Part shown: positions 5,793-24,127 of the stretch, one piece after another | Position numbering within the stretch: position 1 is the first letter of the stretch | Layout of the letters: each line of letters begins with the position of its first letter | From: an uncultured bacterium | GTDB taxonomy: Bacteria > Babelota > Babeliae > Babelales > Vermiphilaceae | NCBI GenBank assembly: GCA_963707655.1 | Contig: OY970172.1 | Span: 352,001 to 416,000, forward strand | Direction of reading: 5' to 3' | DNA: 64,000 nt | Notes under the pieces: generated by a model | Database searches by the model: none | What the model saw: only the letters and a program-made list of their open reading frames with translations | What the model was told of the DNA's origin: nothing | Translations under genes and position numbers: made by a program

Positions 5793-6383
5793 ATGGATTA
5801 TAAATTTTATGGCATGGCGTTGTTGTTTTTATCATGTGGCGCTACGCAGGCAATGGACAATCATCGTCCTCCGATGCAGCCGACAATTAATCTGCCGCTT
5901 GCTTGTGCGGGGCACATACAACCATGCGTGAAGGGATGGAAGTCCCTTTCTGATAAAGAACCAGAAAATTCTTTAGTTCTCGATAGTTTAGGGCGTGGCT
6001 CGTCTACATGGCATGATCGGGACGATGAAACAGTCTACTCTTCGCGTCAAACCATTAAAAATTGTTCAGATTCATATGTTATAAACTATACAAAAGATGG
6101 ACAGGACAATGAATTGAAAATTGGAGATAAACCAACATATTTAGCCCTGAATGCAAATAAAACAATATTGTTGGTTGAAGGCATTGAACTGGCAGTTGAG
6201 TCTGGGGACTGGTGCGATCTTGTTGCTGTGGTTTTAGCAACAAACAAACTATACAAACTTGATGAATATAACGGATCATGTGCCAGTTTTAAACATGCAA
6301 TTGGATTCGATGGAAACAAAGCAGTGGCACATTATAATTTTACCCGTCAGGAATGGGATCTTACTTCTCTCTTGCCGGAATAA
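5793..6383 (+). CDS. Hypothetical secreted protein
   Basis: 196 aa; signal peptide ending ATQA-MD. Confidence 0.7.
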   Translation: MDYKFYGMALLFLSCGATQAMDNHRPPMQPTINLPLACAGHIQPCVKGWKSLSDKEPENSLVLDSLGRGSSTWHDRDDETVYSSRQTIKNCSDSYVINYTKDGQDNELKIGDKPTYLALNANKTILLVEGIELAVESGDWCDLVAVVLATNKLYKLDEYNGSCASFKHAIGFDGNKAVAHYNFTRQEWDLTSLLPE

Positions 6384-6417: not shown

Positions 6418-6457
6418 AAAGAGAGCCCCTGTTGCAAAAAATGGGGGCTCTTTCTTT
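6418..6457 (+). terminator. Rho-independent terminator
   Basis: GAGAGCCCC...GGGGCTCTTTC stem followed by a T-rich tract, after the 5793-6383 gene. Confidence 0.7.
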
Positions 6458-6546: not shown

Positions 6547-6575
6547 TTGACTGTTTTCATATATTTTTATAAAAT
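6547..6575 (+). promoter_or_regulatory. Sigma70-like promoter of the zinc-finger array
   Basis: TTGACT-17 nt-TAAAAT about 70 nt upstream of ATG 6647. Confidence 0.55.
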
Positions 6576-6646: not shown

Positions 6647-7804
6647 ATGAAAAAGACATTATTCGTCATCCTATCGCTGGCTTGCCACAGTTGCTGGGCG
6701 ATGGTCGCAGTTGAAGACGCCCCATTCGGTCAGTTGGCTCTGTTTGACCATGGATTTCAACCGGGTACACCGCTGCCACCCGTTGGAGAAGGGGATGAAC
6801 TTGCACAATGGGCGATGCGGGAGGCAGTTTCTACGCCTGATGCAGCAAACAGCATCGATGCAGTATTGTCTGCAGAGCAAAAGAAAGAAGTCTCTGCTCT
6901 TCATGCAGCATCTTTGGTTACGGTAAAAAAAGGAATGAAAAAGAGAAAAATAGCGAGAAGCGCGCTGTGGTGCGAGGAATGCAGATGTCGGGCAGTAAAT
7001 CTGAAGAACTTTGATCTGCACAAGCAAAGCAAGGGCCATTTAGAAAAAACAGGGCAGCCGTTACCACATTGGTCAGTATACAATTTCACCTGCGCACCAT
7101 GTGAATACGGGTCGTTTCGTAAGCAGGACTTGAATGCGCACATGCTCAGCAATTCTCACCTAATACAAACAGGACAATCGTTGCCGGATTGGCAAGTACA
7201 TAAATACAGATGTAAAACATGTAAATATGGAACGAGCAAAAGAACAGCCATGGATATCCACCTGCTCAGCAAGAGCCATTCAGAAAAAACGGGACAATCG
7301 TTATTAGATTGGTCAACATATGATTTTGCCTGCGAACCATGTGAATATGGAACTTGGAAAAAAGATCACTTCGATCTGCACATGCTCAGCAAGAGCCATT
7401 TAAAAAAAGTGGGACAATTGTTATCAGATTGGCAGGCATGTAAATACAAATGCGAAATATGTGAATATGGCATCGCTCAAAAAGTAAAATTTAATGAACA
7501 CATGCTAAGCAAAGGCCATTTAGAGAAAATAGGGCAATCGTTGGCGTGGGATGCATATCAATATAAATGTGCACCATGTGAATATGGAACCCCGCTGAAA
7601 AGAAGCTTGAATGCACATATGCTCAGTAAGGACCATTTAGAAAAAACAGGACAATCGTTACCAGCTTGGTCAGAATATGATTTTACCTGTGCACTGTGTA
7701 AATATGGAACTCCGCATAAAAGTAACTTAGATAGGCATATGCGAAATAGTAGGCATAAGAAAGCTTATTTGAAATCAATTGAAGTCCTGATTAGGAAAGA
7801 ATAG
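6647..7804 (+). CDS. Secreted tandem C2H2 zinc-finger protein, 7 fingers (array gene 1)
   Basis: Signal peptide MKKTLFVILSLACHSCWA-M; KKGMKKRKIAR basic patch; seven C-x2-C-x12-H-x5-H units with 39-40 aa period. Confidence 0.9.
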   Translation: MKKTLFVILSLACHSCWAMVAVEDAPFGQLALFDHGFQPGTPLPPVGEGDELAQWAMREAVSTPDAANSIDAVLSAEQKKEVSALHAASLVTVKKGMKKRKIARSALWCEECRCRAVNLKNFDLHKQSKGHLEKTGQPLPHWSVYNFTCAPCEYGSFRKQDLNAHMLSNSHLIQTGQSLPDWQVHKYRCKTCKYGTSKRTAMDIHLLSKSHSEKTGQSLLDWSTYDFACEPCEYGTWKKDHFDLHMLSKSHLKKVGQLLSDWQACKYKCEICEYGIAQKVKFNEHMLSKGHLEKIGQSLAWDAYQYKCAPCEYGTPLKRSLNAHMLSKDHLEKTGQSLPAWSEYDFTCALCKYGTPHKSNLDRHMRNSRHKKAYLKSIEVLIRKE

Positions 7805-7844
7805 TTGAGGCCGCAATAGTAATCGCAAGGAAAATAATAAGATG
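7802..7844 (+). repeat. Conserved intergenic spacer of the zinc-finger array (copies near 8881-8923, 9965-9996, 11149-11191)
   Basis: TAG(C/T)T(A/G)AGGC..AATAGTAATCGCAAGGAAAATAAxAAxATG recurs between genes and contains an AAGGA ribosome-binding site. Confidence 0.85.
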
Positions 7845-8852
7845 AAAAAGATATTACTCGTTATTCTATTGCTGGCTTGCCCCAGCTGCTGGGCGATGGT
7901 TGACGTTGAATACGCTCCATTCAGTCAGTTGGCTCTGTTTGACTATGGATTTCAACCAGACGCGGCGTTACTAATGGAAGAAGAGGGGAATGAGGACGAA
8001 CTTGCTCAATGGGCAATGCGGGAGGCAGTTTCTGCCCCCGATGCGACGAACAGCAATGATGCAGTATTGTCTACAGAACAAAAGAAGGCAGTCGCCGCTC
8101 TTCATGCGGCATCTTTGGTTACCGTAAAAAAAGGCATGAAACAGAGAAAAATAGCGAGAAGCAAGCTGTGGTGTAAGGAATGTAAATATCGGGCAGAGAG
8201 GCCGGTTGATTTTGATCGGCACAAGCAAAGCAAGGGCCATTTGGAAAAAATAGGACAGCCGTTGCCACATTGGTCAATATATGAATTTACCTGCGCGCCA
8301 TGTGAATATGGGGTCGTACGTAAAAAGGATTTGAATACACACATGCGAAGCAAAGGGCATTTAGAAAAAACGGGACAATCATTGCCAGATTGGCAGGCAT
8401 ATGAATTTACGTGCGCACCATGTGAATATGGAGCTTTGCAAAAAGCAACCTTGAATCTGCACATGCGGAGCAAGGGTCATTTAGAAAAAACAGGACAATC
8501 GTTGCCAGCTTGGCAAGCATATGAATTTACTTGCGTACCATGTGAATATGGGGGCGTGCGTAAGGAGGATTTGAATGCGCACATGCAAAGCAATTCCCAC
8601 CTAATAAAAACAGGACAATCGCTACCAGATTGGCAAGCATATGATTTCACCTGTGCCACATGTAAATATGGAGCCTTGAAAAAAACAACCTTGAATGACC
8701 ACATGCAAAGCAAAAGCCATTTAGAGAAAATAGGGCAATCGTTGGCGTGGGATGCATATAAATACAGATGTGAAACATGTAAACATGGCTTCTTGCAAAA
8801 AGGGCATTTTGATAGACATATGCGCAGTAAGAATCATAAAAAGCTTATTTGA
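7842..8852 (+). CDS. Secreted tandem C2H2 zinc-finger protein, 6 fingers (array gene 2)
   Basis: Same architecture; six fingers; C-terminal tail frameshifted relative to paralogs. Confidence 0.9.
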   Translation: MKKILLVILLLACPSCWAMVDVEYAPFSQLALFDYGFQPDAALLMEEEGNEDELAQWAMREAVSAPDATNSNDAVLSTEQKKAVAALHAASLVTVKKGMKQRKIARSKLWCKECKYRAERPVDFDRHKQSKGHLEKIGQPLPHWSIYEFTCAPCEYGVVRKKDLNTHMRSKGHLEKTGQSLPDWQAYEFTCAPCEYGALQKATLNLHMRSKGHLEKTGQSLPAWQAYEFTCVPCEYGGVRKEDLNAHMQSNSHLIKTGQSLPDWQAYDFTCATCKYGALKKTTLNDHMQSKSHLEKIGQSLAWDAYKYRCETCKHGFLQKGHFDRHMRSKNHKKLI

Positions 8853-8920
8853 AAGCATTGAAATCCTGACTAGGAAAGAATAGCTAAGGCCGCAATAGTA
8901 ATCGCAAGGAAAATAATAAA

Positions 8921-9967
8921 ATGAAAAAGACATTATTCGTTATCCTATTGCAGGCTTGGCCCAGCTGCTGGGCTATGGTTGACGTTGAAGACGCTCCATT
9001 CAGTCAGTTGGCTCTGTTTGACCATGGATTTCAACCAGACGCGGCGTTACTAATGGAAGAAGAGGGGCATGAGGACGAACTTGCTCAATGGGCAATGCGG
9101 GAGGCAGTTTCTACACCCGATGCGGCGAACAGCAATGATGCATTACTGCCTACAGAACAAAAGGAGGCAGTCGCCGCTCTTCATGCGGCATCTTTGGTTA
9201 CCGTAAAAAAAGGCATGAAAAAGAGAAAAATAGCGAGGAGCGAGCTCTGGTGTAAGGAATGCAAACATCGGGCAGTAAATCTGTATAACTTCGATCTGCA
9301 CAAGCAAAGCAAGGGCCATTTAGAAAAAACAGGACAACCATTACTCCATTGGTCAGCATACAATTTTACCTGCGCGCCATGTGAATATGGGGCGCTTCGT
9401 GATAAGGACTTGAATGTGCACATGCTAAGCCGTTCTCACCTAATAAAAACAGGACAATCGTTACCAGATTGGCAAGCATATAAATACAGATGTGAAACAT
9501 GTAAATATGGAGCTTGCAAAAAAACAACCTTCGATGTGCACGTGCACAGCAGGAGCCATTTAGAAAAAACAGGACAATCGCTGCCAGATTGGCAAGCATA
9601 TGAATTTACGTGTGCACCATGTGAATATGGAAGCCCGCAAAAAAGTAACTTGAATTTGCACATGCAAAGCAAAGGTCATTTAGAGAAAATAGGGCAATCG
9701 TTATCAGATTGGCAAGCATATGAATTTACTTGCGAACCATGTGAATATGGGGCCGTGCGTAAGGACGATTTGAATGCACACATGCACAGCAGGAGCCATT
9801 TAGAAAAAACAGGACAATCGTTACCAGATTGGTCAGCATACAATTTCACCTGTGCACTATGTGAATATGGAACCCCGTATGAAAATGACTTAGATAGACA
9901 TATGCGCAGTAAGAAGCATGAGAAAGCTTATTTGCAATCAATTGAAGTCCTGACTAGGAAAGAATAA
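8921..9967 (+). CDS. Secreted tandem C2H2 zinc-finger protein, 6 fingers (array gene 3)
   Basis: Same architecture; six fingers. Confidence 0.9.
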   Translation: MKKTLFVILLQAWPSCWAMVDVEDAPFSQLALFDHGFQPDAALLMEEEGHEDELAQWAMREAVSTPDAANSNDALLPTEQKEAVAALHAASLVTVKKGMKKRKIARSELWCKECKHRAVNLYNFDLHKQSKGHLEKTGQPLLHWSAYNFTCAPCEYGALRDKDLNVHMLSRSHLIKTGQSLPDWQAYKYRCETCKYGACKKTTFDVHVHSRSHLEKTGQSLPDWQAYEFTCAPCEYGSPQKSNLNLHMQSKGHLEKIGQSLSDWQAYEFTCEPCEYGAVRKDDLNAHMHSRSHLEKTGQSLPDWSAYNFTCALCEYGTPYENDLDRHMRSKKHEKAYLQSIEVLTRKE

Positions 9968-9993
9968 ATAGTAATTACAAGGAAAATGATAAG

Positions 9994-11151
9994 ATGAAAA
10001 AGATATTACTCGCTATCATAATGCTGACGGCCTCCAGCGGCAGGGCGATGCTTGAAGTTGAAGATGCTCCATTCGGTCAGTTGGCTCTGTTTGACTATGG
10101 ATTTCAATCAGGTACGCCGTTGTCACTGGTTGTAGAAGGGGACGAACTTGCACAATGGGCGATGCGGGAGGGAGCTTCTACACCTGATGCGGCAAACAGC
10201 ATCGATGCATTATTGTCTACAGAACAAAAGAAAGCAGTCGCTGCTCTTCATGCGGCATCTTTGGTTACCGTAAAAAAAGGCATGAAACAGAGAAAAATAG
10301 CGAGAAGTAAGCTGTGGTGCAAGGAATGCAAATATCGGGCAGGAAATCTGAATCACTTTGATGAGCACAAGCGAACCAAGGGCCATTTGGAAAAAACAGG
10401 ACAACCATTACCACATTGGTCAACATATGATTTTTCCTGCGAACCATGTGAATATGGGGTCGTGCGTAAGAAGGATTTGAATATACACATGCGAAGCAAA
10501 GGCCATTTAGAAAAAACGGGACAATCGCTACCAGATTGGGCAGCATACGATTTTACCTGCGCACCATGTGAATATGGAGCTTTGAAAAAAGCAACTTTGA
10601 ATTTGCACAAGCGAACCAAGGGCCATTTAGAAAAAACAGGACAATCGCTACCAGATTGGTCAACATATGATTTTTCCTGCGAACCATGTGAATACGGAAC
10701 CATGAAAAAAACAACCTTGAATGACCACATGCAAAGCAAGAGCCATTTAGAAAAAGTAGGACAATCGTTATCAGATTGGCAAGCATACGATTTCACCTGT
10801 GCACTATGTAAATATGGCACCACGCAAAAAGTAAACTTGAATGCACACATGCAAAGCAAGGGCCATTTAGAGAAAGCAGGGCAATCGTTGGCGTGGGATG
10901 CATATCAATATACATGCGCACCATGTGAATATGGAACCCCGCAAAAAAGATGCTTGAATGCACACATGCTCAGCAAGGATCATTTAGAAAAAACAGGACA
11001 ATCATTGCCAGATTGGCAAGCATACAATTTCACCTGTGCACTATGTAAATATGGAACTCCGCATAAAAGGAACTTAGATAGACATATGCGCAGTAAGAAG
11101 CATGAGAAAGCTTATTTGAAATCAATTGAAGTTCCGGCTAGGAAAGAATAG
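9994..11151 (+). CDS. Secreted tandem C2H2 zinc-finger protein, 7 fingers (array gene 4)
   Basis: Same architecture; seven fingers. Confidence 0.9.
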   Translation: MKKILLAIIMLTASSGRAMLEVEDAPFGQLALFDYGFQSGTPLSLVVEGDELAQWAMREGASTPDAANSIDALLSTEQKKAVAALHAASLVTVKKGMKQRKIARSKLWCKECKYRAGNLNHFDEHKRTKGHLEKTGQPLPHWSTYDFSCEPCEYGVVRKKDLNIHMRSKGHLEKTGQSLPDWAAYDFTCAPCEYGALKKATLNLHKRTKGHLEKTGQSLPDWSTYDFSCEPCEYGTMKKTTLNDHMQSKSHLEKVGQSLSDWQAYDFTCALCKYGTTQKVNLNAHMQSKGHLEKAGQSLAWDAYQYTCAPCEYGTPQKRCLNAHMLSKDHLEKTGQSLPDWQAYNFTCALCKYGTPHKRNLDRHMRSKKHEKAYLKSIEVPARKE

Positions 11152-11188
11152 CTAAGGCAGAAATAGTAATCGCAAGGAAAATAACAAG

Positions 11189-11986
11189 ATGAAAAAGACA
11201 TTATTCGTCATCCTAGTGCTGGCTTGCCCCAGCTGCTGGGCGATGGTTGAAGTTGAAGATGCTCCATTCGGTCAGTTGGATTTGTTTGACTATGGATTTC
11301 AACCGGGCGCGGCGTTGCTGATGGAAGAAGAGGGGAATGGGGACGAACTTGCGCAATGGGCGATGCGGGAGGCAGTTTCAGCACCCGATGCGGTGAACAG
11401 CAATAATGCATTACTGTCTACAGAACAAAAGAAGGCAATCGCTGCTCTTCATGCGGCATCTTTGGTTACCGTAAAAAAAGGCATGAAAAAGAGAAAAATA
11501 GCGAGAAGTAAGCTGTGGTGCAAGGAATGCAAATGTCGGGTAATAAATCTGAAGAACTTTGATTTGCACAAGCAAAGCAAGGGCCATTTAGAAAAAACAG
11601 GACAGCCGTTACCACATTGGTCAGCATATGAGTTTACTTGCGCACCGTGTGAATACGGGGCTTTTCTTAAGCAATCTTTGAATGCACATATGCGAAGCCG
11701 TTCCCACCTAATAAAAACAGGGCAATTGTTACCAGTTTGGCAAGCATATAAATACAGATGTGAAATATGTAAATATGGAACTCCGCATAAAGGAAACTTG
11801 AATACACACATGCAAAGCAAGGGCCATTTAGAGAAAACAGGGCAATCGTTGGTGTGGGATGCACATAGATACAGATGTGAAATATGTGAACGTGGCTTCT
11901 TGGAAAAAGGGCATTTTGATAGGCACATGCGCACTAAGAAGCATGAGAAATCAGTAACTAAAAAAACAATCGTGAGGAAAAAATAA
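11189..11986 (+). CDS. Secreted tandem C2H2 zinc-finger protein, 4 fingers (array gene 5)
   Basis: Same architecture; four fingers. Confidence 0.9.
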   Translation: MKKTLFVILVLACPSCWAMVEVEDAPFGQLDLFDYGFQPGAALLMEEEGNGDELAQWAMREAVSAPDAVNSNNALLSTEQKKAIAALHAASLVTVKKGMKKRKIARSKLWCKECKCRVINLKNFDLHKQSKGHLEKTGQPLPHWSAYEFTCAPCEYGAFLKQSLNAHMRSRSHLIKTGQLLPVWQAYKYRCEICKYGTPHKGNLNTHMQSKGHLEKTGQSLVWDAHRYRCEICERGFLEKGHFDRHMRTKKHEKSVTKKTIVRKK

Positions 11987-11987
11987 G

Positions 11988-12929
11988 ATGAAAAAGATAT
12001 TACTCGTTATCCTGTTGCTGGCTTGCCCCAGATGCTGGGCGATGGGCGAAGAAGCCTCATACTACGATCAGTTGGCCCTGTTTGACCATAGATCTCAACG
12101 AGATGTTCCCTTTTTATCAATGGAACAATGTGATGTGGACGGAATCGCGCCATGGATTATTGATGAGGAAAATCCGTTTAGCCAGTGGAATCCATCTGAC
12201 TATGAATTGCGACTAGGCACGCCATTATTGACACCGAGGCAAGAAGATGATGGGTGTGAGCTTGAGTCTTTGGCAATGCAGGGCAATGTTGTGGATCCTC
12301 ATGAGGAGCTGGACATCGGTGCATCATTGTCTACAAAACAAAAGAAAGCAGTCGCCGCTCTTCATGAGTCATCTTTGATTACCGTAAAAAAAGGTATGAA
12401 AGAGAGAAGAATAGCTAGGGGTAAGTTGTGGTGCAAGGAATGCGGATATAATGTCTGGCATAAAGGAAACTTGAATGCACACATGAAAGGCAAAGTTCAT
12501 CTAAGAAGAACAGAACAATCGTTACTAGATTGGCAAGAGCATAAACACAGATGTGCACCATGCAAATATGGTGACTGGCATAAAGGACACTTGAATGCAC
12601 ACATGAAAAGCAAAGCGCATCTAAGAAAAATAGAACAATTGTTGTCATCGGTATCGGGGCAATATCAATGTCCACCATGTGGATATGACACCCCTTTGAA
12701 GCGTAGCTGGAATGCGCACGAGCGTAGTAGGGACCATTTAGAAAAAACAGGACAGTTGTTAAAAGATTGGCGCTCATATGAATATAAATGTAAAACATGT
12801 AAACATGGCATGGCTTCCAGGCTTCAATGGGATACACACGTGCGAAGCAAGCAACATGTGCAAACAAGTAAACTGCTTATTGAAAATCAACGGAAAAGCG
12901 CCAGAGTAAAAGAAATAGCTAAAGCTTGA
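11988..12929 (+). CDS. Secreted tandem C2H2 zinc-finger protein, 4 fingers, divergent with longer acidic N-region (array gene 6)
   Basis: Signal peptide ...PRCWA-M; long D/E/W-rich N-region; four fingers. Confidence 0.88.
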   Translation: MKKILLVILLLACPRCWAMGEEASYYDQLALFDHRSQRDVPFLSMEQCDVDGIAPWIIDEENPFSQWNPSDYELRLGTPLLTPRQEDDGCELESLAMQGNVVDPHEELDIGASLSTKQKKAVAALHESSLITVKKGMKERRIARGKLWCKECGYNVWHKGNLNAHMKGKVHLRRTEQSLLDWQEHKHRCAPCKYGDWHKGHLNAHMKSKAHLRKIEQLLSSVSGQYQCPPCGYDTPLKRSWNAHERSRDHLEKTGQLLKDWRSYEYKCKTCKHGMASRLQWDTHVRSKQHVQTSKLLIENQRKSARVKEIAKA

Positions 12930-12962: not shown

Positions 12963-12995
12963 AAAAAACCCCGCCAATATAAAAGCGGGGTTTTT
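12963..12995. terminator. Bidirectional intrinsic terminator
   Basis: AAAAAACCCCGC-loop-GCGGGGTTTTT between convergent genes. Confidence 0.8.
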
Positions 12996-13015: not shown

Positions 13016-14767
13016 TTATCTTATTGATTTAAGAACATCAATCAACTCTTTGAGCGATTTTTGCAAGGTATAGACCGATGCCGGCACTGGAACCAGTTGC
13101 ATTAAATTAGCATTGGGGACTGGTTGAGGTTCGCCCAAAAATGCCCATCGTTTATCAGCAGTAATGGTGCTTTCCTGATTTTTTATAGCATCAATCTGTT
13201 GCATTATTGAATTAATTGTTGCGGTTTTTGCGATTATTTCATCAACATCTATCTTATAATATTTTTTTTGTTCCGGGCTGAACTTGCTAAAGCGAACACG
13301 AAGAGCATTTGCTTTCTCCATAGTGCGGTCCGCGGCGTTTATTGCGCTTTGCAACGCATTTGCTGCTTGAGTATTAACGGGTGTAGCAGTACTCAGTACC
13401 AAAGTCTCTATATTTTTAAAGTTATTATCAATAAGAATATCAGTTACTCTATCCAGAGAAGAAGATAAATTGTCAAAGCTTTTTTCAGTTCGTTTATCTT
13501 CTTCACCTTTCTTTTTTTCATCCTCTTTTTTTGGTTTATCTGTTGCTGCCGGTTTAGCTGCTTCTTTTTTGCCTTCAGCCGGTTTTGGCATTGGCGCAGC
13601 GCCGCCTGCTTTTGGTGCGGATGCACCGCCGCCAGCGTTACCTCCTGTTTTACCGGTACCGCCGCCGGTTGATCGTGTTCCGGCTTCGGTTGATGAAGGT
13701 TGGTTGTCTGCAGAACCAAAACGAGGTTGTCCTGTTTGCTGATACAATGCATCATTTGAATAGCCACTGCCATATGAAGGGGTTTGTCTTTGCACCTTGC
13801 TGTATTGTGGTGCGGGTGCCTCATAACCAGCGGTGATTACCGGCGTTGCTGGGCGGGGGGCAGCACTTTTTTGTGCTTCCTGTATGCTTTTTGTTTTTTC
13901 TTCACTTAATTTAGCGGCCTTTGGTCCGTATGTGCCAATGATGCTTTCAAGGCTTGCGGGCAAACCGAGTTTGTAAAATGCCTCACTAATGCAGCTGAGC
14001 GCTTTTTTAAAGGCGGTGCTTGATTTTTCAGTCAAAGTAGTAGAACCAAATTCAGGAATTTCAATATTTGGTTCATTGATGCGTAACACACTTTCTACGC
14101 GTGCGAGGTTGTTGCGTACAACTTCATTTTTAATCAATTCAGGCAAATATTTATATTCTTTTGTTTTTGGATCGCGATCTTTCATCTTTGAGAGTTGTTG
14201 TATCAAAAGCTCTATCTGGCCTTTTAGTGTTTCCCAGCGGTCAAAAGATGGATTGATGCCGCCTTCTTTGAGCCATGCGCTCACTTTTATTGAAAAATCG
14301 GGAATAAGAGCACTTTTGCTTATTATTTTTTCAAGTCTTGTTAAAAGACTATCAATAATGGCAGCAGCTTCATCTATTTTTGAAGAAGCAATCGGTTTAG
14401 CCGCCGGTTTTGTTTCCTGCGTTACCGGCGTAGAAACAACAGGAGTTGTTTCTGTTATTGGTGTTTCAATCGGTTTAATTTTTTCTTCCAGTTGAGTAGC
14501 CTCTTTTTCAACTTCTGCCCAAAACTCTTCAAGAAATTTTTCCTGCTCGGCCGGTGGTAATTTAGCAACTTCCTTTTCAAGCTCTTGCATGATTTCCATA
14601 AAAAATTGCTGTTGCTGTTCCTCATTGAGTCCCTGTACCATCTCCATCATTTCGCGTTCTTGCGGATCTAAGCGAGAAAGGTCGAGCGCGCTCGCGCTTG
14701 TCACTACGATTGCAGATCCCCATATAATGAGCGATAAGAGCACAAGAAGATTTCTGAAAAAATTCAT
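13016..14767 (-). CDS. Secreted/membrane-anchored hypothetical protein with helical domains and a Gly/Pro/Lys-rich linker
   Basis: 583 aa; N-terminal signal (…SASA-LD); Q/E-rich helix; low-complexity GGGTGKTGGNAGGG linker. Confidence 0.8.
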   Translation of the reverse strand: MNFFRNLLVLLSLIIWGSAIVVTSASALDLSRLDPQEREMMEMVQGLNEEQQQQFFMEIMQELEKEVAKLPPAEQEKFLEEFWAEVEKEATQLEEKIKPIETPITETTPVVSTPVTQETKPAAKPIASSKIDEAAAIIDSLLTRLEKIISKSALIPDFSIKVSAWLKEGGINPSFDRWETLKGQIELLIQQLSKMKDRDPKTKEYKYLPELIKNEVVRNNLARVESVLRINEPNIEIPEFGSTTLTEKSSTAFKKALSCISEAFYKLGLPASLESIIGTYGPKAAKLSEEKTKSIQEAQKSAAPRPATPVITAGYEAPAPQYSKVQRQTPSYGSGYSNDALYQQTGQPRFGSADNQPSSTEAGTRSTGGGTGKTGGNAGGGASAPKAGGAAPMPKPAEGKKEAAKPAATDKPKKEDEKKKGEEDKRTEKSFDNLSSSLDRVTDILIDNNFKNIETLVLSTATPVNTQAANALQSAINAADRTMEKANALRVRFSKFSPEQKKYYKIDVDEIIAKTATINSIMQQIDAIKNQESTITADKRWAFLGEPQPVPNANLMQLVPVPASVYTLQKSLKELIDVLKSIR

Positions 14768-14851
14768 ATTTTTCCTTTTCGTTACGGTGTGTTAGATAGA
14801 ATTCTAATGTACCCTAGTATAAGGCAATTGCTATCAGTTACAATAGAGTTT

Positions 14852-15229
14852 ATGAAAAAACAGAACAAAAAAGGATTTCTTCTTATTGAATTTATTATTG
14901 CATGCGCATTGCTTGTATCGATAGCTGCACTGATGAGTTTGTATTTTTCTGCCATGGCAAAACAGTATTGCCAAGCAAAGCGCCATTTAGAAACTTTTCG
15001 TCTGTTGCAGCACGCGTTGTATGAAGATGGATCAGCTGCTGCGCATAACGCGGGAACGATAGACGCGCAAGAATTCATGTTGCCACCTCTTAAAGCAGCA
15101 TTGCGAAACAAGGGATATAGCAATGCGTTTCACCAAACATTAATTATTAAAGTAGTGAGCATGCCTGAGGATCAAGATGCTCGATTGATGCGCTTGGAGA
15201 GCATTTGTGTGCGTAGGAATGCAGTATGA
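14852..15229 (+). CDS. Prepilin-type N-terminal cleavage protein (minor pilin/pseudopilin)
   Basis: MKKQNKKG-FLLIEFIIA class III signal (G-F...E5). Confidence 0.8.
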   Translation: MKKQNKKGFLLIEFIIACALLVSIAALMSLYFSAMAKQYCQAKRHLETFRLLQHALYEDGSAAAHNAGTIDAQEFMLPPLKAALRNKGYSNAFHQTLIIKVVSMPEDQDARLMRLESICVRRNAV

Positions 15230-15663
15230 AAAAGCGGGGATTCACCTTAATTGAATGTATTATCGCCATAGCGCTGTTTGCGCTCATTGCGTTTTTAACA
15301 ACTCATTTTAGCGTACAATGTTATACAACAATTACTCAATTGCGCACGCAAAGTTCTGCGTTGATGATGTTTAATACTGCCTTTGATTTTCTTGCGCGCG
15401 ATCTTAAAATGGCGCCGACCATGAGTGAGTGGAAATCAAAAAACAAAAATGATTATACGTGGCGGCAGGGGGATGCCCAATTACGATGGCGCATAGATGA
15501 AAACAAGTTATTACGCAGCTGTGGTAATCGTTCAAGCGTTGTTGCATTGCATGTTGAATCGTTAACTATAGAAGAAGCGCGTAATGGATTTAATCTATTT
15601 TTAAAACTTGATAACAACGGACATTGTTATCAAACGAAACAATGGGTAAGGGTAGTGCGATGA
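15226..15663 (+). CDS. Prepilin-type protein (GspJ/PilW-like)
   Basis: MKKRG-FTLIECIIA, then ...LARDLKMA; ATGA overlap with the previous gene. Confidence 0.85.
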   Translation: MKKRGFTLIECIIAIALFALIAFLTTHFSVQCYTTITQLRTQSSALMMFNTAFDFLARDLKMAPTMSEWKSKNKNDYTWRQGDAQLRWRIDENKLLRSCGNRSSVVALHVESLTIEEARNGFNLFLKLDNNGHCYQTKQWVRVVR

Positions 15664-16055
15664 ATAAACCGGGGATGGCCCTTATTACCGTTTTTCTTTG
15701 TTTGTCTGCCTCATCCGTAATCATTCTTACCGCTTATCAAGCAATAGCGCTATTGCCCATTTTTTCCCGTGATCATATTAAATATCAAGCAGATGAACTG
15801 ATGCTTGATGGGGCTTGTATATATGCGCGCGAATTTTGCAGAGAAAATTGGAAACGCCTTGTTTTTTATGCTCAGCAGGGGGAAAAACAAGAGATATTTT
15901 TTGCGCCATCATCATCACCCGGTGTTCGAGCGCGCATTGGTATTAACTTGGGTACCAAAGAGCAGCAGATAGAAATATCGTTATTAAAAAAAGGCCAGCA
16001 GAGCTGTATGCGAAAAATATCTATAAATCACAACTGTGCCATTGCCTTACAGTAA
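15660..16055 (+). CDS. PilX/GspK-like minor pilin
   Basis: MNKPG-MALITVFL (G-xAL without E5, typical of PilX/GspK); ATGA overlap. Confidence 0.65.
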   Translation: MNKPGMALITVFLCLSASSVIILTAYQAIALLPIFSRDHIKYQADELMLDGACIYAREFCRENWKRLVFYAQQGEKQEIFFAPSSSPGVRARIGINLGTKEQQIEISLLKKGQQSCMRKISINHNCAIALQ

Positions 16056-16076
16056 CTATGCATCTCACCTGTATGG

Positions 16077-16422
16077 TTATGCCCGTCTCGCGCGTCTGGT
16101 AGCAGTTCTATGCGCAGTGGTGTTGTTGTGTTGAGTAAGATGTGTAACAATATCAGTGCCATACTGGCACGTTTTATACGTATATTCATGAAGGTACCAC
16201 GCTAAGAGCGGTAGTCCGGTAGCACGCTTCTTGGTCACCGCCAATCGAGCTATTTTTAAGTTTTTGGGCGCTCTTATATCCAGAGGCTCTGTATTGGCAT
16301 TGAGTCTACTGGCGTTTGTGAGCAGCCAATTCAATCTCATCTGTTATTGCCAGATCAATTTCTTGGGCAATGGCAAGGGAAAATGTGCTGATTATGAATA
16401 GTATAATTATTTTTGGCATCAT
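16077..16422 (-). pseudogene. Degenerate paralog of the 17000-17614 zinc-finger gene
   Basis: The frame MMPKIIILFIISTFSLAIAQEIDLAITDEIELAA stops at HKRQ*. Homology resumes in another frame (…KNLKIARLAVTKKR…GLPLLAWYLHEYT-YKTCQYGTD…H…H). First Cys replaced by Tyr; only one finger remains. Confidence 0.8.
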
Positions 16423-16999
16423 TATTCGTATGATTTCATGTATTGCGTGACTGCCTTAGCTTGCCCTTAAAACGATTCTTTATCAAGAGTAGATAAAAAG
16501 AAATTCTATGCGCCATTCAAAGACGCATAATTCTTACCCTTATGTTAATTCTTCTCCTCCTGCTTATTCAAACAACAAAGAACTCAGCCAACAGTGATAC
16601 AAGAAAGTATAAAAAGGACTGACCCTTGCTCAACTATTACTGATACATGTCATCATTGAAACCAAGAAGCTCCCCGTAATAATACCCGAGCAGTCATTGG
16701 TTCAAGGACCGTTGGAAAAAACATCTAACATGGTAAGTATTAAAAACCCTCAGCAAGACTCACCCGAAGTGCCAAAGGAATTAACGCAAGTTGTCTACAC
16801 GCAACAACTCTTTAATGGCCTTCCAGAATCAATAAGAAAGTATCTGTCTACTGTGGCGAGTCCACAACCTGTTCCTCAATCAATACAAAAGAGTATTGAC
16901 AGAATTGTGCGAGCGCACTAGATAGAGCCATACATTCGGGAGGGCAGGGGTTCTCTGCGGGCCCCTGAATGGGATCAACCACTTCTGGTTGTCTAGGCG

Positions 17000-17614
17000 T
17001 TATTGTTGTGCTCGTAAGGTTTGCAAGTCAATCGGTGCCACGCGTTCGGCGGCAGTTCTATGTTTGGCGCTATTGTTGTGTGAGGTAAAACGTTCGCGCC
17101 GATCAGTGCCATACTCGCACGTTTTACACATATATTCACGAAGGTACCACGCTACTTGCGGTAGTCCAGTAGCAGCTCTATGCGCAGTACTGTGGTTATG
17201 TTGAATAAGATGTGAAAAAACATCAGTGCCATACTTGCACGTTGCACACGTATATGCACGAAGGTACCACGCTACTTGCGGTAGTCCGGTAGTAGTTCTA
17301 TGTTTGGCGGTGTTATTATGTTTAACAAGGTCTGCAGGCTGATCAGTGCCATACTTGCAAATCTCACATATATATTTACGCTTACGCCACGTTGAAGCAA
17401 CACGCTTTTTGGTAGCTAATCGAGCCGCTTTTAAGTTTTTGGATACTTTTACGCTCGTGGGCATGGGCTTTGCATCAGCATTTACTTTCCCTATGTTTGC
17501 CAGTATAGTAACAGCCAATTGAATATCACCGATTCTTACTGGATTGACTTCTTGAGCCATTACCAGAGAAAATGTGCTGAGTATAATTATTTTTATCATC
17601 ATCATCATCATCAT
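17000..17614 (-). CDS. Secreted tandem C2H2 zinc-finger protein, 3 fingers (second subfamily)
   Basis: Signal MIKIIILSTFSLVMA-QE; basic KKRVASTWRKRK; three C-x2-C-x12-H-x5-H units with 40-aa period and linker TGLPQVAWYLRxY. Exact start within the (ATG)6 run is uncertain. Confidence 0.88.
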   Translation of the reverse strand: MMMMMMIKIIILSTFSLVMAQEVNPVRIGDIQLAVTILANIGKVNADAKPMPTSVKVSKNLKAARLATKKRVASTWRKRKYICEICKYGTDQPADLVKHNNTAKHRTTTGLPQVAWYLRAYTCATCKYGTDVFSHLIQHNHSTAHRAATGLPQVAWYLREYMCKTCEYGTDRRERFTSHNNSAKHRTAAERVAPIDLQTLRAQQ

Positions 17615-18030
17615 AGTTTCATTTTCCGTGCTCGTTTATGTGTGCAACTGCCTTAAACCAATCTTGCGTGGGTGATGAATTCTAGCTTGCCTTTTAAATG
17701 ACTTTTTATCAAGAACGAGCGACCTAAAAATACAATATGTCATATAAGGGCGCATAATTCATTGCCATTATGTCAATAAAGCCCGCCTGCTCATTCAGAC
17801 GAAAAAAGCTAAACTAACAGCGATACAAGATGATATAAAAAGGACTATTACATAATGTATTCTTAATCGGAAAAAATAGTATCGGCCCGATTTTGCGAGG
17901 CAAAATGTAATAAACCATTCCATCTCATGGCTAACATTGAAAAGGCGATTACGTTTTTTATTTCCAAGCAACTTTTTTTGGGCTATACTTTTTGCCATTA
18001 ATAAAGCATTTTTTTATGTATAGGAACATT

Positions 18031-18474
18031 ATGAAAGTATATCTATTAAAAAATATTGAACGAGTTGGTATTGCCGGAGAAATTATTAAAGTGAGCGATG
18101 GCTATGGTGCCAATTACCTTATTCCTCACAAATTGGCAGTAGCCGTCACCAGCGAGAACGAAGGATCATTTAAACAGCGCGCGCAAAGCATTGATCGCCG
18201 CAACGAAGTAATATCAACGCAAACTTCTATGTTGGCCGAAAAAATAAAATCAATTACCGTGACCTTAAAACGCAAAATGCATGATGATGGCAAGTTGTAT
18301 GGCTCGGTATCTCAAGGTGAAATTGCCGATCTTCTCGCAGAAAAAGGGGTCAGTGTTTCTAAGAGCCAAGTGGAAATCCCAAAATCAATCAAAGAAAAAG
18401 GGAACTACGAGGTAACCATTAAATTATCCTCACGCTTGCAGCCAACAATAACGCTTAAAGTAATCGCAGAATAG
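18031..18474 (+). CDS. rplI: 50S ribosomal protein L9
   Basis: MKVYLLKNIERVGIAGEIIKVSDGYGANYLIP and GKLYGSV motifs; upstream of dnaB. Confidence 0.95.
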   Translation: MKVYLLKNIERVGIAGEIIKVSDGYGANYLIPHKLAVAVTSENEGSFKQRAQSIDRRNEVISTQTSMLAEKIKSITVTLKRKMHDDGKLYGSVSQGEIADLLAEKGVSVSKSQVEIPKSIKEKGNYEVTIKLSSRLQPTITLKVIAE

Positions 18475-18505
18475 TACGTCATTTTTTTAAAGAGGCCACA
18501 GCAGA

Positions 18506-19873
18506 ATGTACGCTGACCGCAACACCACGGGTAGCCTGCAAAAAAAAATTAGTACTGAACGAGTAATAGGTAAAGCACTGCCATCAAACCTTGATGCAGA
18601 AAAAGCGGTGCTTGGCGCCTTACTTCTTAATGATGAATATATGTCATTAGTAAGTGAAATTATCGTAGCAGAAGATTTTTATAGCGCACCCCATAAACTT
18701 ATTTTCCAGGCAATTTTAGATATTACTGCCCAAAGAAAGCGGATTGATCTGCTCACGTTACAAGATGAGTTAAGTCGCAGAAATCAGCTCGAGGCAATAG
18801 GGGGCGTTGTGTATCTTCTTGCTTTACAGGAAGATATTCCTGCTATTGGCCTTATTGAGCAGCATGCGAATATTGTTAAAGAAAAATCGGTGCTGCGCAA
18901 TTTAATTGGTTCAGCTGCATCAATCATTACCAATTGTTATGATCAAAACAAGGCAAGCATAGATTCAGTGCTCGATGACGCTGAAAAAACTATCTTTCAA
19001 ATTGCCAACAAACGTACAAATCAAAGCTTTGTACAGCTTAACATTTGGCTTAAAAAAACATTCCAGCACCTTTCTGATATTAAAAGCAATAATAAAGGAA
19101 TCACCGGCGTTCCCTCAGGCTATAAAAAATTGGATGACATGACCTCAGGGTTTCAAAAGGGTGATTTGATTGTTCTTGCCGCGCGCCCGTCAATGGGCAA
19201 AACAGCGCTTGCCCTGAGTATTGCCGCACAAGCGGCCCATGATGCAACGGTTGGATTTTTCTCACTAGAAATGTCTGCCGAACAGTTAACGCTGCGTATG
19301 CTTTCTGCCGAATCAGGTATTGCGCATCATAACATTCGTAATGCAACAATAAGTTCGCAAGAATGGATCGAGCTCACGAGTGTTGCCGGACGCATGTCTC
19401 AAATGAAGTTATTTATTGACGATACCGCCATGCTCAGTGTCATGGATTTACGTACAAAAGCCCGCAAGTTAAAAATAGAGCACAAGTTGCAATTTCTGGT
19501 GATTGATTATTTGCAGCTCTTGCATAGTACCAACAAGCATGAAAACAGGCATCAGGAAGTATCTGAAATATCACGCTCACTTAAAGCATTAGCAAAAGAA
19601 TTAGATATTCCCATTGTGGCGCTCTCACAGCTTTCTCGTGCTGTTGATTCACGGATGGATAAACGTCCCATGCTTTCTGATTTGCGTGAATCGGGTGCGA
19701 TTGAACAAGATGCTGACTTGATTATGTTCTTGTATCGTGATGTAGTATACAACCAAGAAACAGAAAATCCGGCCTTGGCAGAACTTATTATCGGTAAACA
19801 AAGAAATGGTCCTACCGGGACAGTGTTTCTAAACTTTATGCGTGAATTAACAAAATTTGAAGATGAAGAGTAA
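18506..19873 (+). CDS. dnaB: Replicative DNA helicase
   Basis: AEKAVLG, AARPSMGKT, FSLEMS, IDYLQL, LSQLSR, DLRESGAIEQDAD, KQRNGPTG. Confidence 0.98.
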   Translation: MYADRNTTGSLQKKISTERVIGKALPSNLDAEKAVLGALLLNDEYMSLVSEIIVAEDFYSAPHKLIFQAILDITAQRKRIDLLTLQDELSRRNQLEAIGGVVYLLALQEDIPAIGLIEQHANIVKEKSVLRNLIGSAASIITNCYDQNKASIDSVLDDAEKTIFQIANKRTNQSFVQLNIWLKKTFQHLSDIKSNNKGITGVPSGYKKLDDMTSGFQKGDLIVLAARPSMGKTALALSIAAQAAHDATVGFFSLEMSAEQLTLRMLSAESGIAHHNIRNATISSQEWIELTSVAGRMSQMKLFIDDTAMLSVMDLRTKARKLKIEHKLQFLVIDYLQLLHSTNKHENRHQEVSEISRSLKALAKELDIPIVALSQLSRAVDSRMDKRPMLSDLRESGAIEQDADLIMFLYRDVVYNQETENPALAELIIGKQRNGPTGTVFLNFMRELTKFEDEE

Positions 19874-19924
19874 AGAAGCAGCGTGTAGTTTTACCATCTT
19901 TTACCCATAAGCAGGTTTATTCAT

Positions 19925-20668
19925 ATGTCAACTAAGTCTATTTCTCTTTTCTATACAAAAATGAATCGTTTTCTGACAAAATGTATCATTGCTCTTCTTG
20001 TTTCATCGTTCGTGCTGTATCAAGGCGCACGCATCTTGTGGGGCGAGCATTATATGACTTTTTTCAAAGGAATTGTCCGTAACCCCTTGCAAGTTGGTGC
20101 ATTTTCTCCCTGCTCAGTATTTGTTGCGCAGGAAATAACAAAATATGTGGCTTCTGATACAAAACAAGGATCATTGCGGGTTTTAGAGGTTGGCGCCGGG
20201 TCGGGAGTATTGACCACGGACCTTGAAAAGGCTCTACAGAAAAGGGGCGGGGAATATATTCTTGATGTTATTGAAATTGATCCCGAATATGCTGCGTTGT
20301 TAAAAAAACGATTTGAAAACAATAAGAATGTTGCTATTCATTGCATCGATATAAACGATTTTAATGTAGAACAGCGTTATGACTATCTCATTTCAACTCT
20401 ACCTTTTAATGTGATGGATAATTCTGTTATTAAACAGATTTTTCAGCAATATGAAAAAATGGTTGCACCCAATGGCGTACTTTCCTATGTTGAGCATATG
20501 TGGCTGCCTGATATAAAAGAAAAGACACTCAGTGGCACTGAAAAACAAGCATTTATTGAAAAGCGTACCATAGTAAACAGCTTCAAAGATAAATACCTTG
20601 TTGAAACAGTGAACGTATATAGAAATATTACTCCTTTATATGTGCACCATTTAAAAATAGTAGATTAA
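19925..20668 (+). CDS. Class I SAM methyltransferase, phospholipid N-methyltransferase (PmtA)-like
   Basis: NPLQVGAFSPCS, VLEVGAGSG, IEID, ISTLPF motifs; N-terminal hydrophobic anchor. Start may be at the second Met. Confidence 0.75.
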   Translation: MSTKSISLFYTKMNRFLTKCIIALLVSSFVLYQGARILWGEHYMTFFKGIVRNPLQVGAFSPCSVFVAQEITKYVASDTKQGSLRVLEVGAGSGVLTTDLEKALQKRGGEYILDVIEIDPEYAALLKKRFENNKNVAIHCIDINDFNVEQRYDYLISTLPFNVMDNSVIKQIFQQYEKMVAPNGVLSYVEHMWLPDIKEKTLSGTEKQAFIEKRTIVNSFKDKYLVETVNVYRNITPLYVHHLKIVD

Positions 20669-20712
20669 AGATTATAAAGTATAATGTATCTGCAAAAGGA
20701 GAGTAGAGTAGT

Positions 20713-21210
20713 ATGATAATTCTGGGCATCGATCCGGGATTTCAGGTCACCGGTTATGGTATTGTTAAAAAAGAGGGAAGCAAGTCTTACTTAATCGACT
20801 GCGGTTACCTTAAAATGAGTTCAACAAAAACATTATCATATCGCATAGGCATATTTTATAATTTTTTCACGAATAAAATTAAAGAGGCAAGTGTCACTAA
20901 TATTGCTCTTGAAACCCCGTTCTTGGGAAAAAACGCCCAAAACTTTCTCAAATTAGGGTATCTGCGTGGCATATTATATCTTCTTGCCGAGCAACATCAG
21001 CTGCCATTGCATGAGTTTTCACCGACAGAAGTAAAATCATCATTAACCGGTTTCGGTGGCGCAAGCAAAGAACAAGTTGCACGCGTTATTTTACGGTTAT
21101 TTCCTCAATTACAAGCTCCCGATAAGGCTGACGTTACCGATGCAATTGCCGTAACCTTGTGCGGCTTATGGAAAAGCAACAGCAACATATTGCTCAATAA
21201 GATGAAATAA
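20713..21210 (+). CDS. ruvC: Holliday junction resolvase RuvC
   Basis: MIILGIDPG…TGYG, ALETPF, VKSSLTGFGGASKEQV, DVTDAIA. Confidence 0.95.
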   Translation: MIILGIDPGFQVTGYGIVKKEGSKSYLIDCGYLKMSSTKTLSYRIGIFYNFFTNKIKEASVTNIALETPFLGKNAQNFLKLGYLRGILYLLAEQHQLPLHEFSPTEVKSSLTGFGGASKEQVARVILRLFPQLQAPDKADVTDAIAVTLCGLWKSNSNILLNKMK

Positions 21211-21380
21211 TGAGTGATAAACAAACACTTTTTTAAAAATGAAAGTAATGTCTTGCTTTTGCTCCGGTGCTTTATTTACCTTGTAGGCATGAAGGGTCAC
21301 GGGGAAGGGACGTCTTAATGCCAGGTCTCATCATTATGGTGATGGGGCCAACCGCGCTATTAAAGGAAGGGAATGTGCTC

Positions 21381-21851
21381 ATGACAAAATTGGGCTTCAC
21401 CTATCCATCGTTTACTAGAAGCAATTTTATCTATATTCATGATCAAAGAATCAGTTCTCATGAAGAAATCATTGCGCTGCATGATATATTGCTTACTCCC
21501 GGTTTTCATTGTTTAAAAGCTAAGAATATGGCATCGGGCAGAGTTGTTGTTGATGTTTTTCTTATGTCATTAAATTGTTTTCACACTATCGGTTGCTTAA
21601 CTATGGAAAAACATCAGTTACCCTGCAATATACAAAATATATATCAACAGTTAGAGCAGGGGGACTATCTATCTCAAGGGGCGGATGGGATAGAGAATTT
21701 TCTTGTTGATGCTTTTTACTGCGATTTTCTTTTCATTGAAATGCAGCCCATGCTCATGAGTAGCCGTTGGTTCCCCGTACTACAACAAAAAATGATTGAT
21801 TTAAAACTCGATCAGGCAATTCCTATTATTTATCTGATATATGAATATTAA
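21381..21851 (+). CDS. Hypothetical protein
   Basis: ORF from ATG 21381, preceded by AAGGAAGGG RBS. Confidence 0.65.
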   Translation: MTKLGFTYPSFTRSNFIYIHDQRISSHEEIIALHDILLTPGFHCLKAKNMASGRVVVDVFLMSLNCFHTIGCLTMEKHQLPCNIQNIYQQLEQGDYLSQGADGIENFLVDAFYCDFLFIEMQPMLMSSRWFPVLQQKMIDLKLDQAIPIIYLIYEY

Positions 21852-22633: not shown

Positions 22634-22673
22634 ACATTGCCTTTCTAAATCAGAGCCGATAAGAGCTATTATG

Positions 22674-23762: not shown

Positions 23763-23855
23763 TGGTAATCCTTTTCTTAATCCTCATCGTAGATAGCCTT
23801 GTTATACAGTAACAAAAAGCGAGGCAAAAAAGTAAAATTTATTTGAAAAACCCGC

Positions 23856-23965
23856 AAAAAAAATCCACCGCACTGACCGAAATCAATGCGATGGAAAAAA
23901 GGAGAGTAGTAATGAAGCCTAATTGACAGAATAAATACTTGTGGGTTACCCCCAAGACTTATACT
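23856..23965 (-). ncRNA. Candidate small RNA with an anti-SD segment
   Basis: Minus strand: TTGACA(24000-23995)-17-TACTAT promoter, about 110 nt without an ORF, a 12-bp hairpin (23865-23894) and a U-tract. Confidence 0.55.
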
Positions 23966-24127
23966 GGAATAATAGTATTAATAAATAGTTCAAATGTCAA
24001 ATTTAAAAATTATTAAATTGATAGAAATATCAAATAAAATAGCTAATCATTCTCTTATAGAATAGCTTATTTTTTATGTCTGTCAATAGATAACGCTTTA
24101 AGAATTGGCTTACATAAAGGCATCATT

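Follow-up and report, generated by a model that had tools for sequence, protein, structure and literature searches.

A tandem array of six genes for predicted exported poly-zinc-finger proteins in a Dependentiae bacterium: candidate effectors acting on a protist host

Transcription activator-like (TAL) effectors of Xanthomonas and Ralstonia are built from helical-hairpin repeats of 33 to 35 aa that use a two-residue code, are delivered by type III secretion, and carry a C-terminal nuclear localization signal (NLS) together with an activation domain. Cys2His2 zinc sites are also found in the bacterial Ros/MucR proteins, which are single-domain cytoplasmic regulators with different ligand spacing and a larger fold. 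Here, we describe an array of six tandem genes that appear to encode exported proteins with multiple C2H2 zinc fingers, in a 64,000-nt stretch of DNA (the window; positions 352,001 to 416,000 of contig OY970172.1, assembly GCA_963707655.1) from an uncultured Dependentiae bacterium. By analogy, the closest functional model for these proteins is MoHTR1, MoHTR2, and MoHTR3 of the rice blast fungus Magnaporthe oryzae, which are small and secreted and combine an NLS and a C2H2 domain with a signal peptide, a layout that has been validated by experiment in fungal nuclear effectors; in the excerpted account of these (PMC10189765), MoHTR3 reaches the host nucleus, and MoHTR1 and MoHTR2 are reported to bind promoter elements. 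We found no description of secreted bacterial C2H2 proteins in the literature on Dependentiae/Babeliales/TM6, amoeba symbionts, and eukaryotic-like proteins (subscription journals and supplements being outside the scope), and no mention of C2H2 in the Legionella effector domain atlas, or of a C2H2 effector in the portion of a nucleomodulin review that we drew on (PMC7819608). This agrees with the first-pass annotation of the window, which was made from the sequence alone and was aware of no described bacterial system of this kind.

The array occupies positions 6647 to 12929 on the forward strand and consists of six co-oriented paralogous open reading frames (ORFs), with 52 to 73% identity to paralog 1:

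6647-7804, forward strand: paralog 1, 385 aa; signal-peptide-like N terminus, acidic region, basic patch, and seven fingers.
7842-8852, forward strand: paralog 2, 336 aa; six fingers.
8921-9967, forward strand: paralog 3, 348 aa; six fingers.
9994-11151, forward strand: paralog 4, 385 aa; seven fingers, of which fingers 2 to 4 (10420-10779) were modeled.
11189-11986, forward strand: paralog 5, 265 aa; four fingers.
11988-12929, forward strand: paralog 6, 313 aa; four fingers; the most diverged copy, with a longer acidic region.

Judging from their sequences, it is almost certain that these multi-zinc-finger proteins, made by a protist parasite, are exported. The best-supported reading, which we hold with moderate confidence, is that they would be effectors exported by a Sec/secretin route, targeted to the host nucleus, and able to bind nucleic acid there, with DNA somewhat more likely to be the target than double-stranded RNA (dsRNA).

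Strict fingers of the form C-x2-C-x12-H-x5-H number 7, 6, 6, 7, 4, and 4 in paralogs 1 to 6, a total of 34, and every period is 39 or 40 aa; when the same residues were shuffled 2000 times, the mean was 0.009 fingers and the maximum was one. All four zinc ligands are kept in each of the 34 units, and at the nucleotide level Tandem Repeats Finder reports 120-nt arrays with 65 to 76% matches in genes 1 to 4, and none in genes 5 and 6. The first-pass annotation had listed exactly these finger counts, spacing, and period, and the other elements of its description (six co-oriented paralogs, a Sec-type signal, an acidic/aromatic region, and a basic patch) are likewise present in all six at the same positions, the patch in precisely the form given.

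Each paralog begins with M-K-K, a short hydrophobic run, and then a small-x-A motif, a Sec-type N terminus whose mean hydropathy over 10 aa is 3.07 and 3.65 in genes 5 and 6, the two measured. The region that follows the signal has a net charge of -7 to -15 and is 16 to 23% F/W/Y/L/M, and all six paralogs carry the basic patch, V-K-K-G-M-K-(K/Q/E)-R-(K/R)-I-A-R; both lie N-terminal to the repeats, and the finger regions have net charges of +2 to +18. A conserved lipobox was considered and rejected: L-A-C occurs near residue 13 in four of the six, but the Cys is missing from paralogs 3 and 4. Searching the ESM Atlas with the first 108 residues returned no usable match.

These modules suggest how the system might work. 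The six genes may be one transcription unit of an obligately host-dependent Dependentiae (Babeliales) bacterium, and the products would be eukaryote-type poly-zinc-finger proteins, diversifying as a family and exported to act on its protist host. The Sec signal peptide would carry the unfolded protein through the inner membrane, and release would follow by a secretin-based (type II/type IV-pilus-like) route or in outer-membrane vesicles; the K/R-rich patch (K-K-G-M-K-K-R-K-I-A-R) would then act as a nuclear import signal, the four to seven fingers would bind host nucleic acid, each through its variable helix face, and, more speculatively, the acidic aromatic-rich N-terminal region might recruit host factors in the manner of an activation domain. 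The genome, estimated to be 88.6% complete, carries SecY, two secretins, and T2SS-E-type ATPases, and has no match to VirB4 or FHIPEP (SctV/FlhA). For the cultured Dependentiae Chromulinavorax destructans, which is reported to grow in the cytoplasm of its host, a Sec system, putative effectors bearing Sec signals, and possible vesicles have been described (Deeg 2019, PMC6561590), in an account of which the portion used here makes no mention of zinc fingers. We also note three small overlapping ORFs at 14789-16055 on the forward strand, 1.9 kb 3' of the array; the middle one (15226-15663, 2.3 kb 3' of the array) carries an N-terminal methylation motif of the prepilin type (PF07963, 29.4 bits, cut-off 21.2; TIGR02532, 29.0, cut-off 16.3), and its neighbors have weak minor-pilin matches under cut-off. 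The three may be a pseudopilin set of a secretin system lying beside its possible cargo genes.

The finger class was identified by profile searches, including families suggested at first pass (zf-C2H2, zf-met, and zf-C2H2_jaz). All six paralogs match PF12171 (zf-C2H2_jaz) at or over its cut-off of 22.6 bits (27.5, 34.8, 25.5, 36.5, 43.7, and 22.8 for paralogs 1 to 6), four of the six exceed the cut-off of 21.2 for PF12874 (zf-met), and four are at or over that for PF12756 (zf-C2H2_2); PF00096 (zf-C2H2) at E ≤ 1e-4 has no match in this genome, and NCBIfam gave paralog 4 a chance-level match only (E 0.003, far under cut-off). In the fingers, the second Cys is followed two positions later by an aromatic residue (C-x2-C-x-Y), a feature of CTCF/REST-type DNA-binding fingers, and the linkers that join them, of 17 residues, have a conserved motif of their own, L-E-K-T-G-Q-S-L-P-D-W. 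An AlphaFold2 model of fingers 2 to 4 of paralog 4, built from a 39-row alignment (predicted local distance difference test [pLDDT], 86; predicted template modeling score, 0.56), contains three copies of one unit, in which a beta hairpin leads into an 8-residue helix and, past a kink located between the two histidines, into another short helix; the linkers that join the modeled fingers show no drop in confidence. A single-sequence model of paralog 5 (pLDDT 35.4) was not used. Searches with Foldseek and VIA-align match C2H2 arrays only, and DNA-bound arrays (PRDM9, CTCF, and TFIIIA) rank first; single fingers match RNA-binding fingers, including the JAZ dsRNA-binding finger (2mkn_A, Z 3.2), spliceosomal and pre-60S factors, and Mod5, and the fold matches also include protein-contact fingers (EEA1-Rab5, 3mjh_D; Helios-cereblon, 9e2u). 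At the level of the model, a tandem betabeta-alpha finger fold with a kinked helix is confirmed, and the ligand is not.

Several of these properties would be expected if the proteins were instead exported effectors that bind double-stranded or structured RNA, as JAZ/ZFa, U1C, and Rei1-type fingers do, acting in the host cytoplasm or nucleolus on, for example, RNA silencing, ribosome assembly, or the RNA of a competing virus. The top Pfam families, the H-x5-H spacing with its kinked helix in the model, the single-finger matches, and linkers longer than those of DNA-wrapping arrays all point this way. The multi-finger structural matches, though weak, are however all DNA complexes, the acidic region and NLS-like patch fit the layout of a transcription factor, and two observations presented below, the fusion of this finger class to GIY-YIG DNA nucleases and the concentration of variability on the base-reading helix face, which dsRNA binding through the backbone would not need, also count against RNA; we consider this explanation rather unlikely.

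Variation among the fingers was examined with helix positions numbered as for Zif268. The most variable of the 37 unit positions across the 34 units are helix +2, -2, -1, +3, and +6, and the conserved ones are helix +1 (K), +4 (L/F), +5 (N/D), +10 (S), and +11 (K), together with the linker. We took -1, +2, +3, and +6 as a-priori contact positions, and for the comparison each finger was paired with its closest counterpart from a different paralog (24 pairs). Nonsynonymous divergence (dN) is 0.374 at the contact positions versus 0.166 elsewhere, a value reached by only 117 of 7315 four-position subsets, and the ratio to synonymous divergence (dN/dS) is 0.75 versus 0.46 at the other positions, which suggests that selection on the contact positions is relaxed or mixed; earlier dN/dS values near 1 to 1.5 came from a site class partly picked after the variability was known. 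Variability concentrates on the face of the recognition helix. Whole 40-aa finger units have been gained or lost among the paralogs, in addition to the helix-face substitutions, and the N-terminal module varies less; for genes 2 and 3, dS is 0.076 in this module versus 0.63 in the fingers, a sign of gene conversion.

This diversification also bears on whether the fingers bind nucleic acids at all. The proteins could be protein-binding or zinc-handling modules that serve as periplasmic, surface, or host-cytoplasm scaffolds with no nucleic-acid role, in which case the basic patch would not be an NLS. C2H2 fingers can contact proteins, as in the two complexes above, the net charge of the finger regions is modest, and the export signal places the proteins outside the bacterial cytoplasm, their release beyond that being a further supposition. 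Helix-face diversification of the paralogs nonetheless points to many specific ligands, and the layout recurs across many genera with Kruppel-type fingers, which are established nucleic-acid binders. On balance, a scaffold role seems improbable.

The first-pass annotation treated the array as singular, which overstates the case: about a quarter of the phylum genomes encode C2H2 proteins of this layout. In the survey of Dependentiae that it had suggested, PF00096 at E ≤ 1e-4 is present in 62 of 261 phylum genomes and 37 of 145 genera, versus 1 of 14 control genomes, and PF12171 in 28 of 261 versus 0 of 14. The loci examined have tandem genes whose products possess a hydrophobic N terminus, an acidic stretch, a K/R cluster, and 2 to 13 classical 28-aa fingers with T-G-E-K-P linkers; tandem poly-finger arrays are present in genomes G053 (about eight genes), G093 (five), and G257 (three), among others. 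The modular layout described for the window, with an export signal, an acidic/aromatic region, a K/R patch, and a variable number of fingers, is upheld, and many other poly-zinc-finger genes of Dependentiae repeat it. Judged by hydropathy, a crude criterion, the N terminus is hydrophobic in 31 of 35 multi-finger ORFs versus 25 of 43 other ORFs at the same loci (Fisher p 0.005), a test that overstates the difference because the genomes are related and the loci were picked through their fingers; 22 of the 35 have a net-acidic middle and 18 have a K/R cluster before finger 1. Two of these arrays, in G053 (L031, 3097-11884, reverse strand) and G093 (L034, 157-3897, forward strand), encode five to eight signal-peptide proteins with 4 to 12 Kruppel-type fingers and a K/R patch and are as striking as the one in the window; we met no description of them in the literature searched.

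The profile of the 40-aa unit, by contrast with the gene layout, is strong only in the source genome (17 matches), and seven others of the 261 pass E 1e-6 weakly; six loci were examined in five of these (G083, G084, G116, G155, and G215, with G001 and G156 outside this set), four having classical fingers and one having no finger ORF. The kind of gene is therefore common in the phylum, and what sets this lineage apart is the unit, with its six-fold expansion. In a profile search of the source genome, all family matches fall within about 19 kb, and there are three further members that the first-pass annotation overlooked:

17000-17614, reverse strand: diverged seventh member, 204 aa; hydrophobic N terminus, K/R-rich patch, and three fingers at 40-aa period; E 9.9e-49 to the finger profile.
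16077-16340, reverse strand: relic, an 87-aa ORF that resembles the 17000-17614 gene by eye, with one finger and no match in the family search.
Just upstream of the window (G000:C1:350158-351042, the same as L010 4158-5042): a relative of 294 aa with two fingers.

The relic is probably a decayed copy, because the first Cys position of its finger reads Y. In a genome of the same genus (G001), three adjacent small genes have signal peptides and one or two fingers each.

In wider searches, exhaustive HMMER comparison with 1.84 billion representative proteins gave 1355 matches at E ≤ 0.001, 131 at ≤ 1e-10, and 9 at ≤ 1e-30. Five of the shorter matches (P0011, P0032, P0050, P0077, and P0098) have the full layout of hydrophobic N terminus, acidic/aromatic stretch, basic stretch, and fingers, with three or four fingers at about 40 aa and a similar linker; in public sources, four of these (the look-up covering all except P0050) are unnamed and rare, in clusters of one to four members. 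A word-indexed search of 5.8 billion proteins with paralog 4 returned two matches among 6316 candidates, both of them the window's own paralogs, and the six-paralog alignment gave 603 pattern matches in a named genome collection, none of which was confirmed.

Many of the strong HMMER matches are either zf-met/JAZ proteins or long proteins of eukaryotic type that contain ZAD, homeodomain, or ankyrin domains. P0093 and P0146 have this finger class fused to GIY-YIG nuclease domains identified by Pfam, and P0056 has a GIY-YIG or related nuclease domain; such fusions indicate that the finger class can address DNA. GIY-YIG domains picked out by eye in P0021, P0026, P0041, P0078, and P0132 were unconfirmed by Pfam and were set aside, only P0093 and P0146 passing of the seven. 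Two metagenome proteins, P0009 (1250 aa) and P0010 (1378 aa), have N-terminal ankyrin repeats and C-terminal fingers of the 40-aa class, two eukaryote-like modules joined in one protein. Contigs of giant-virus metagenome-assembled genomes (GVMAG loci L116 and L117) encode fingers of the form C-x2-C-x-Y-x-T ... H-x5-H at about 40-aa spacing, with 28 to 32% identity over three fingers. These giant-virus proteins share with the array the finger class, the spacing of about 40 aa, and an association with protists; they are without the signal peptide, acidic region, and basic patch, and some have nuclease domains. The shared finger class and the GIY-YIG fusions raise the idea that the array is a selfish giant-virus-like cassette whose proteins would each bind DNA close to the gene encoding them. 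The six paralogs have no nuclease domain by Pfam, though, and the array genes have no long conserved noncoding leader, the spacers between them being mostly 26 to 68 nt; moreover, export signals on all six imply that the proteins leave the compartment of their own genes. A cassette of this sort is accordingly very improbable.

Because the fingers are eukaryote-like and paralogous repeats are hard to assemble, we also considered whether the array is eukaryotic contamination or an assembly artifact. It is located in a single contig of 1,091,075 bp and is flanked by bacterial genes, among them a Mur ligase (MurD-like) and IleRS on one side and ribosomal protein L9 and DnaB on the other, with RuvC, RecF, and the DNA polymerase III beta clamp also in the flanks; this context argues that the array is not eukaryotic contamination, which is very unlikely, and upholds the bacterial origin given at first pass. 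Relatives of the adjacent IleRS, at 49 to 84% identity, are named Candidatus Dependentiae, Candidatus Babeliales, candidate division TM6, and Vermiphilus pyriformis, bearing out the lineage that had been guessed. The GC content of the array (0.40 to 0.43) is similar to that of its flanks, and the genes have bacterial signal peptides, no introns, and a Shine-Dalgarno-like AAGGA or GAGGA about 10 nt 5' of the ATG in all six. Public contigs from four runs of three studies (soil, peat, and wetland) match pieces of the array at 99 to 100% identity. In one run (X4), a 272-nt contig fuses 9909-10075, in the N-terminal region of paralog 4, to 7924-8028, in that of paralog 2, with 32 letters shared by both sides; this junction of 10075 to 7924 could have arisen as a short-read chimera of the two paralogs, or another strain could have an array that is truly recombinant. 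The six-gene order rests on one assembly. Taken with the flanks and the matching contigs, an origin in contamination or misassembly is hardly credible.

The organization of the array is consistent with cotranscription. Its intergenic spacers are 37, 68, 26, 37, and 1 nt, so that paralog 6 starts 1 nt past the stop of paralog 5, and a core is conserved among the spacers, as the first-pass annotation had noted. Three signals flank the genes:

6420-6453, forward strand: intrinsic-terminator-like hairpin (14 pairs, 6 GC, T-rich tail) that ends the upstream 196-aa gene.
6547-6575, forward strand: best sigma-70-like promoter site, a consensus match only (TTGACT-17-TAAAAT, 10 of 12 matches), 3' of the 6420-6453 terminator.
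12964-12995, no strand assigned: hairpin of 11 bp with a GC core, flanked by A and T runs (-16.5 kcal/mol, z -4.69, equaled in 0 of 200 shuffles).

The first hairpin appears to separate the array from upstream transcription, and the last, which lies between the array and a convergent gene (13016-14767, reverse strand), is likely a bidirectional terminator. Of the single promoter and single terminator proposed at first pass, a good site and a good hairpin are thus in place, and that the promoter is the sole one cannot be demonstrated, there being two weaker promoter-like sites on the forward strand within the array region. A single operon is plausible; it is undemonstrated because promoter-like sites are no commoner than in shuffled sequence (12 in the region, versus 18.2 ± 4.6 in shuffles, and hence fewer). 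Terminator-like sites show no excess either (10, versus 7.2 ± 3.4), and putative internal terminators at 8094, 9173, 10240, and 11441 were discarded as one 5-bp stem that recurs inside homologous coding sequence. No RNA data holding the array are among the public runs listed, and Rfam at gathering thresholds gave 0 matches in the whole window.

Other features of the neighborhood are recorded here in their own right. The convergent gene at 13016-14767 (reverse strand), which shares the 12964-12995 hairpin, encodes 583 aa with a signal-like N terminus, glutamate-rich coiled-coil-like stretches, and a G/A/P/K-rich low-complexity middle, and has no family above cut-off. Small ORFs at 5793-6383 (forward strand), L010 3320-3844 (reverse strand), and L010 6504-6908 (forward strand) have signal-like N termini and no family match, and the array neighborhood may be enriched in exported proteins without assigned function. 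Farther away, a 206-aa ankyrin-repeat protein (26556-27176, forward strand; Ank_2, E 9e-58) is a typical host-interaction gene of the phylum, and adjoins a tyrosine recombinase of the phage-integrase family (27206-28120, reverse strand; E 1.5e-41). At about 16000 to 24000, the GC skew changes sign, cumulative skew peaks near 20 to 22 kb, and gene orientation switches from mostly forward to mostly reverse; with DnaB, RecF, and the beta clamp nearby, this may be a replication landmark.

A number of points weigh against nucleus-targeted effectors as the explanation. First, the calls of signal peptide and NLS rest on sequence features, and, with signal peptides on 44% of the genes of C. destructans in the portion of its description drawn on here (PMC6561590), such a signal is weak evidence for effector status. 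Second, with respect to DNA as the target, the 17-residue linker differs from the short linker of DNA-wrapping arrays, the best Pfam families (zf-met, zf-C2H2_jaz, and zf-C2H2_2) are annotated mainly as RNA-related, and the paralog 3 finger region has a net charge of only +2. Third, the matches to DNA-bound arrays are weak (Foldseek E ≥ 8.7e-3; VIA Z ≤ 6.7, within background), as is a PDB sequence profile search, with a best E of 8e-5 and at the top CTCF fingers that share C-x2-C-x-Y. Fourth, a dN/dS of 0.75 at the a-priori contact positions does not show positive selection. Finally, none of the matching public short contigs bridges the whole array, and some parts of it are without contig cover.

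A bolder version of the effector reading, which we offer only tentatively and think on the whole doubtful, is that these are natural "designer" transcription factors. The fingers would have been acquired from hosts or giant viruses, and the proteins built independently by Dependentiae, exported by a Sec/secretin route, and imported into the protist nucleus, where each paralog would read its own site in host DNA through its variable helix positions and the acidic N terminus would activate transcription; the 40-aa unit with its structured linker would constitute a new DNA-reading geometry, distinct from the array of three bases per finger, and the system would be the zinc-finger counterpart of TAL effectors. 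If delivery of the proteins to the host nucleus does take place, they would constitute the first effectors of bacteria made from tandem eukaryote-type zinc fingers and, after TAL effectors, the second natural case of a modular, evolvable nucleic-acid-reading array that reprograms a eukaryotic host. The spread of such genes through the phylum suggests that Dependentiae manipulate their hosts not only with the known ankyrin proteins but also with a second major, so far undescribed, set of tools; the giant-virus finger link bears on gene exchange among parasites with common protist hosts, and binders might be engineered on the 40-aa unit and its conserved linker as a new scaffold.

With Ros/MucR, the array has in common only that a Cys2His2 zinc site occurs in a bacterial protein: the paralogs have tandem fingers and an export signal, and no Ros/MucR or TAL family matches them in Pfam at E ≤ 0.1. 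TAL effectors are nearer in layout, being bacterial proteins in paralog families with a secretion signal, an NLS (an NLS-like patch in the array), an acidic region, and variable tandem repeats; they differ in that the repeats of the array are zinc-binding C2H2 fingers of 39 to 40 aa in place of 33- to 35-aa units with a two-residue code, the N terminus is of Sec type in a genome with no FHIPEP match, and the acidic region and NLS-like patch are N-terminal to the repeats. The label "TALE-like" given at first pass is accordingly an analogy only, for ordinary eukaryote-type C2H2 fingers. The array proteins resemble the MoHTR proteins, at the level of sequence features, in a signal-peptide-like N terminus, a candidate NLS (the K/R patch), and C2H2 fingers; as far as the excerpted account goes (PMC10189765), the MoHTR proteins are small, made by a eukaryote, and have a single C-terminal C2H2, whereas the array is a bacterial six-gene tandem with four to seven fingers of a 40-aa unit, and the two are likened by layout, not homology. 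The eukaryotic zf-met, zf-C2H2_jaz, and zf-C2H2_2 fingers have the same C-x2-C-x12-H-x5-H ligand spacing and long linkers, with profile matches over curated cut-offs, and to these the paralogs add the C-x2-C-x-Y aromatic, the conserved linker motif, and bacterial export signals. The Kruppel-type poly-C2H2 proteins of other Dependentiae are alike in phylum, in the order of signal, acidic region, K/R patch, and fingers, and in forming tandem paralog arrays; their fingers have a 28-aa period, H-x3-H, and T-G-E-K-P linkers, and those of the array described here have a period of 39 to 40 aa and H-x5-H.

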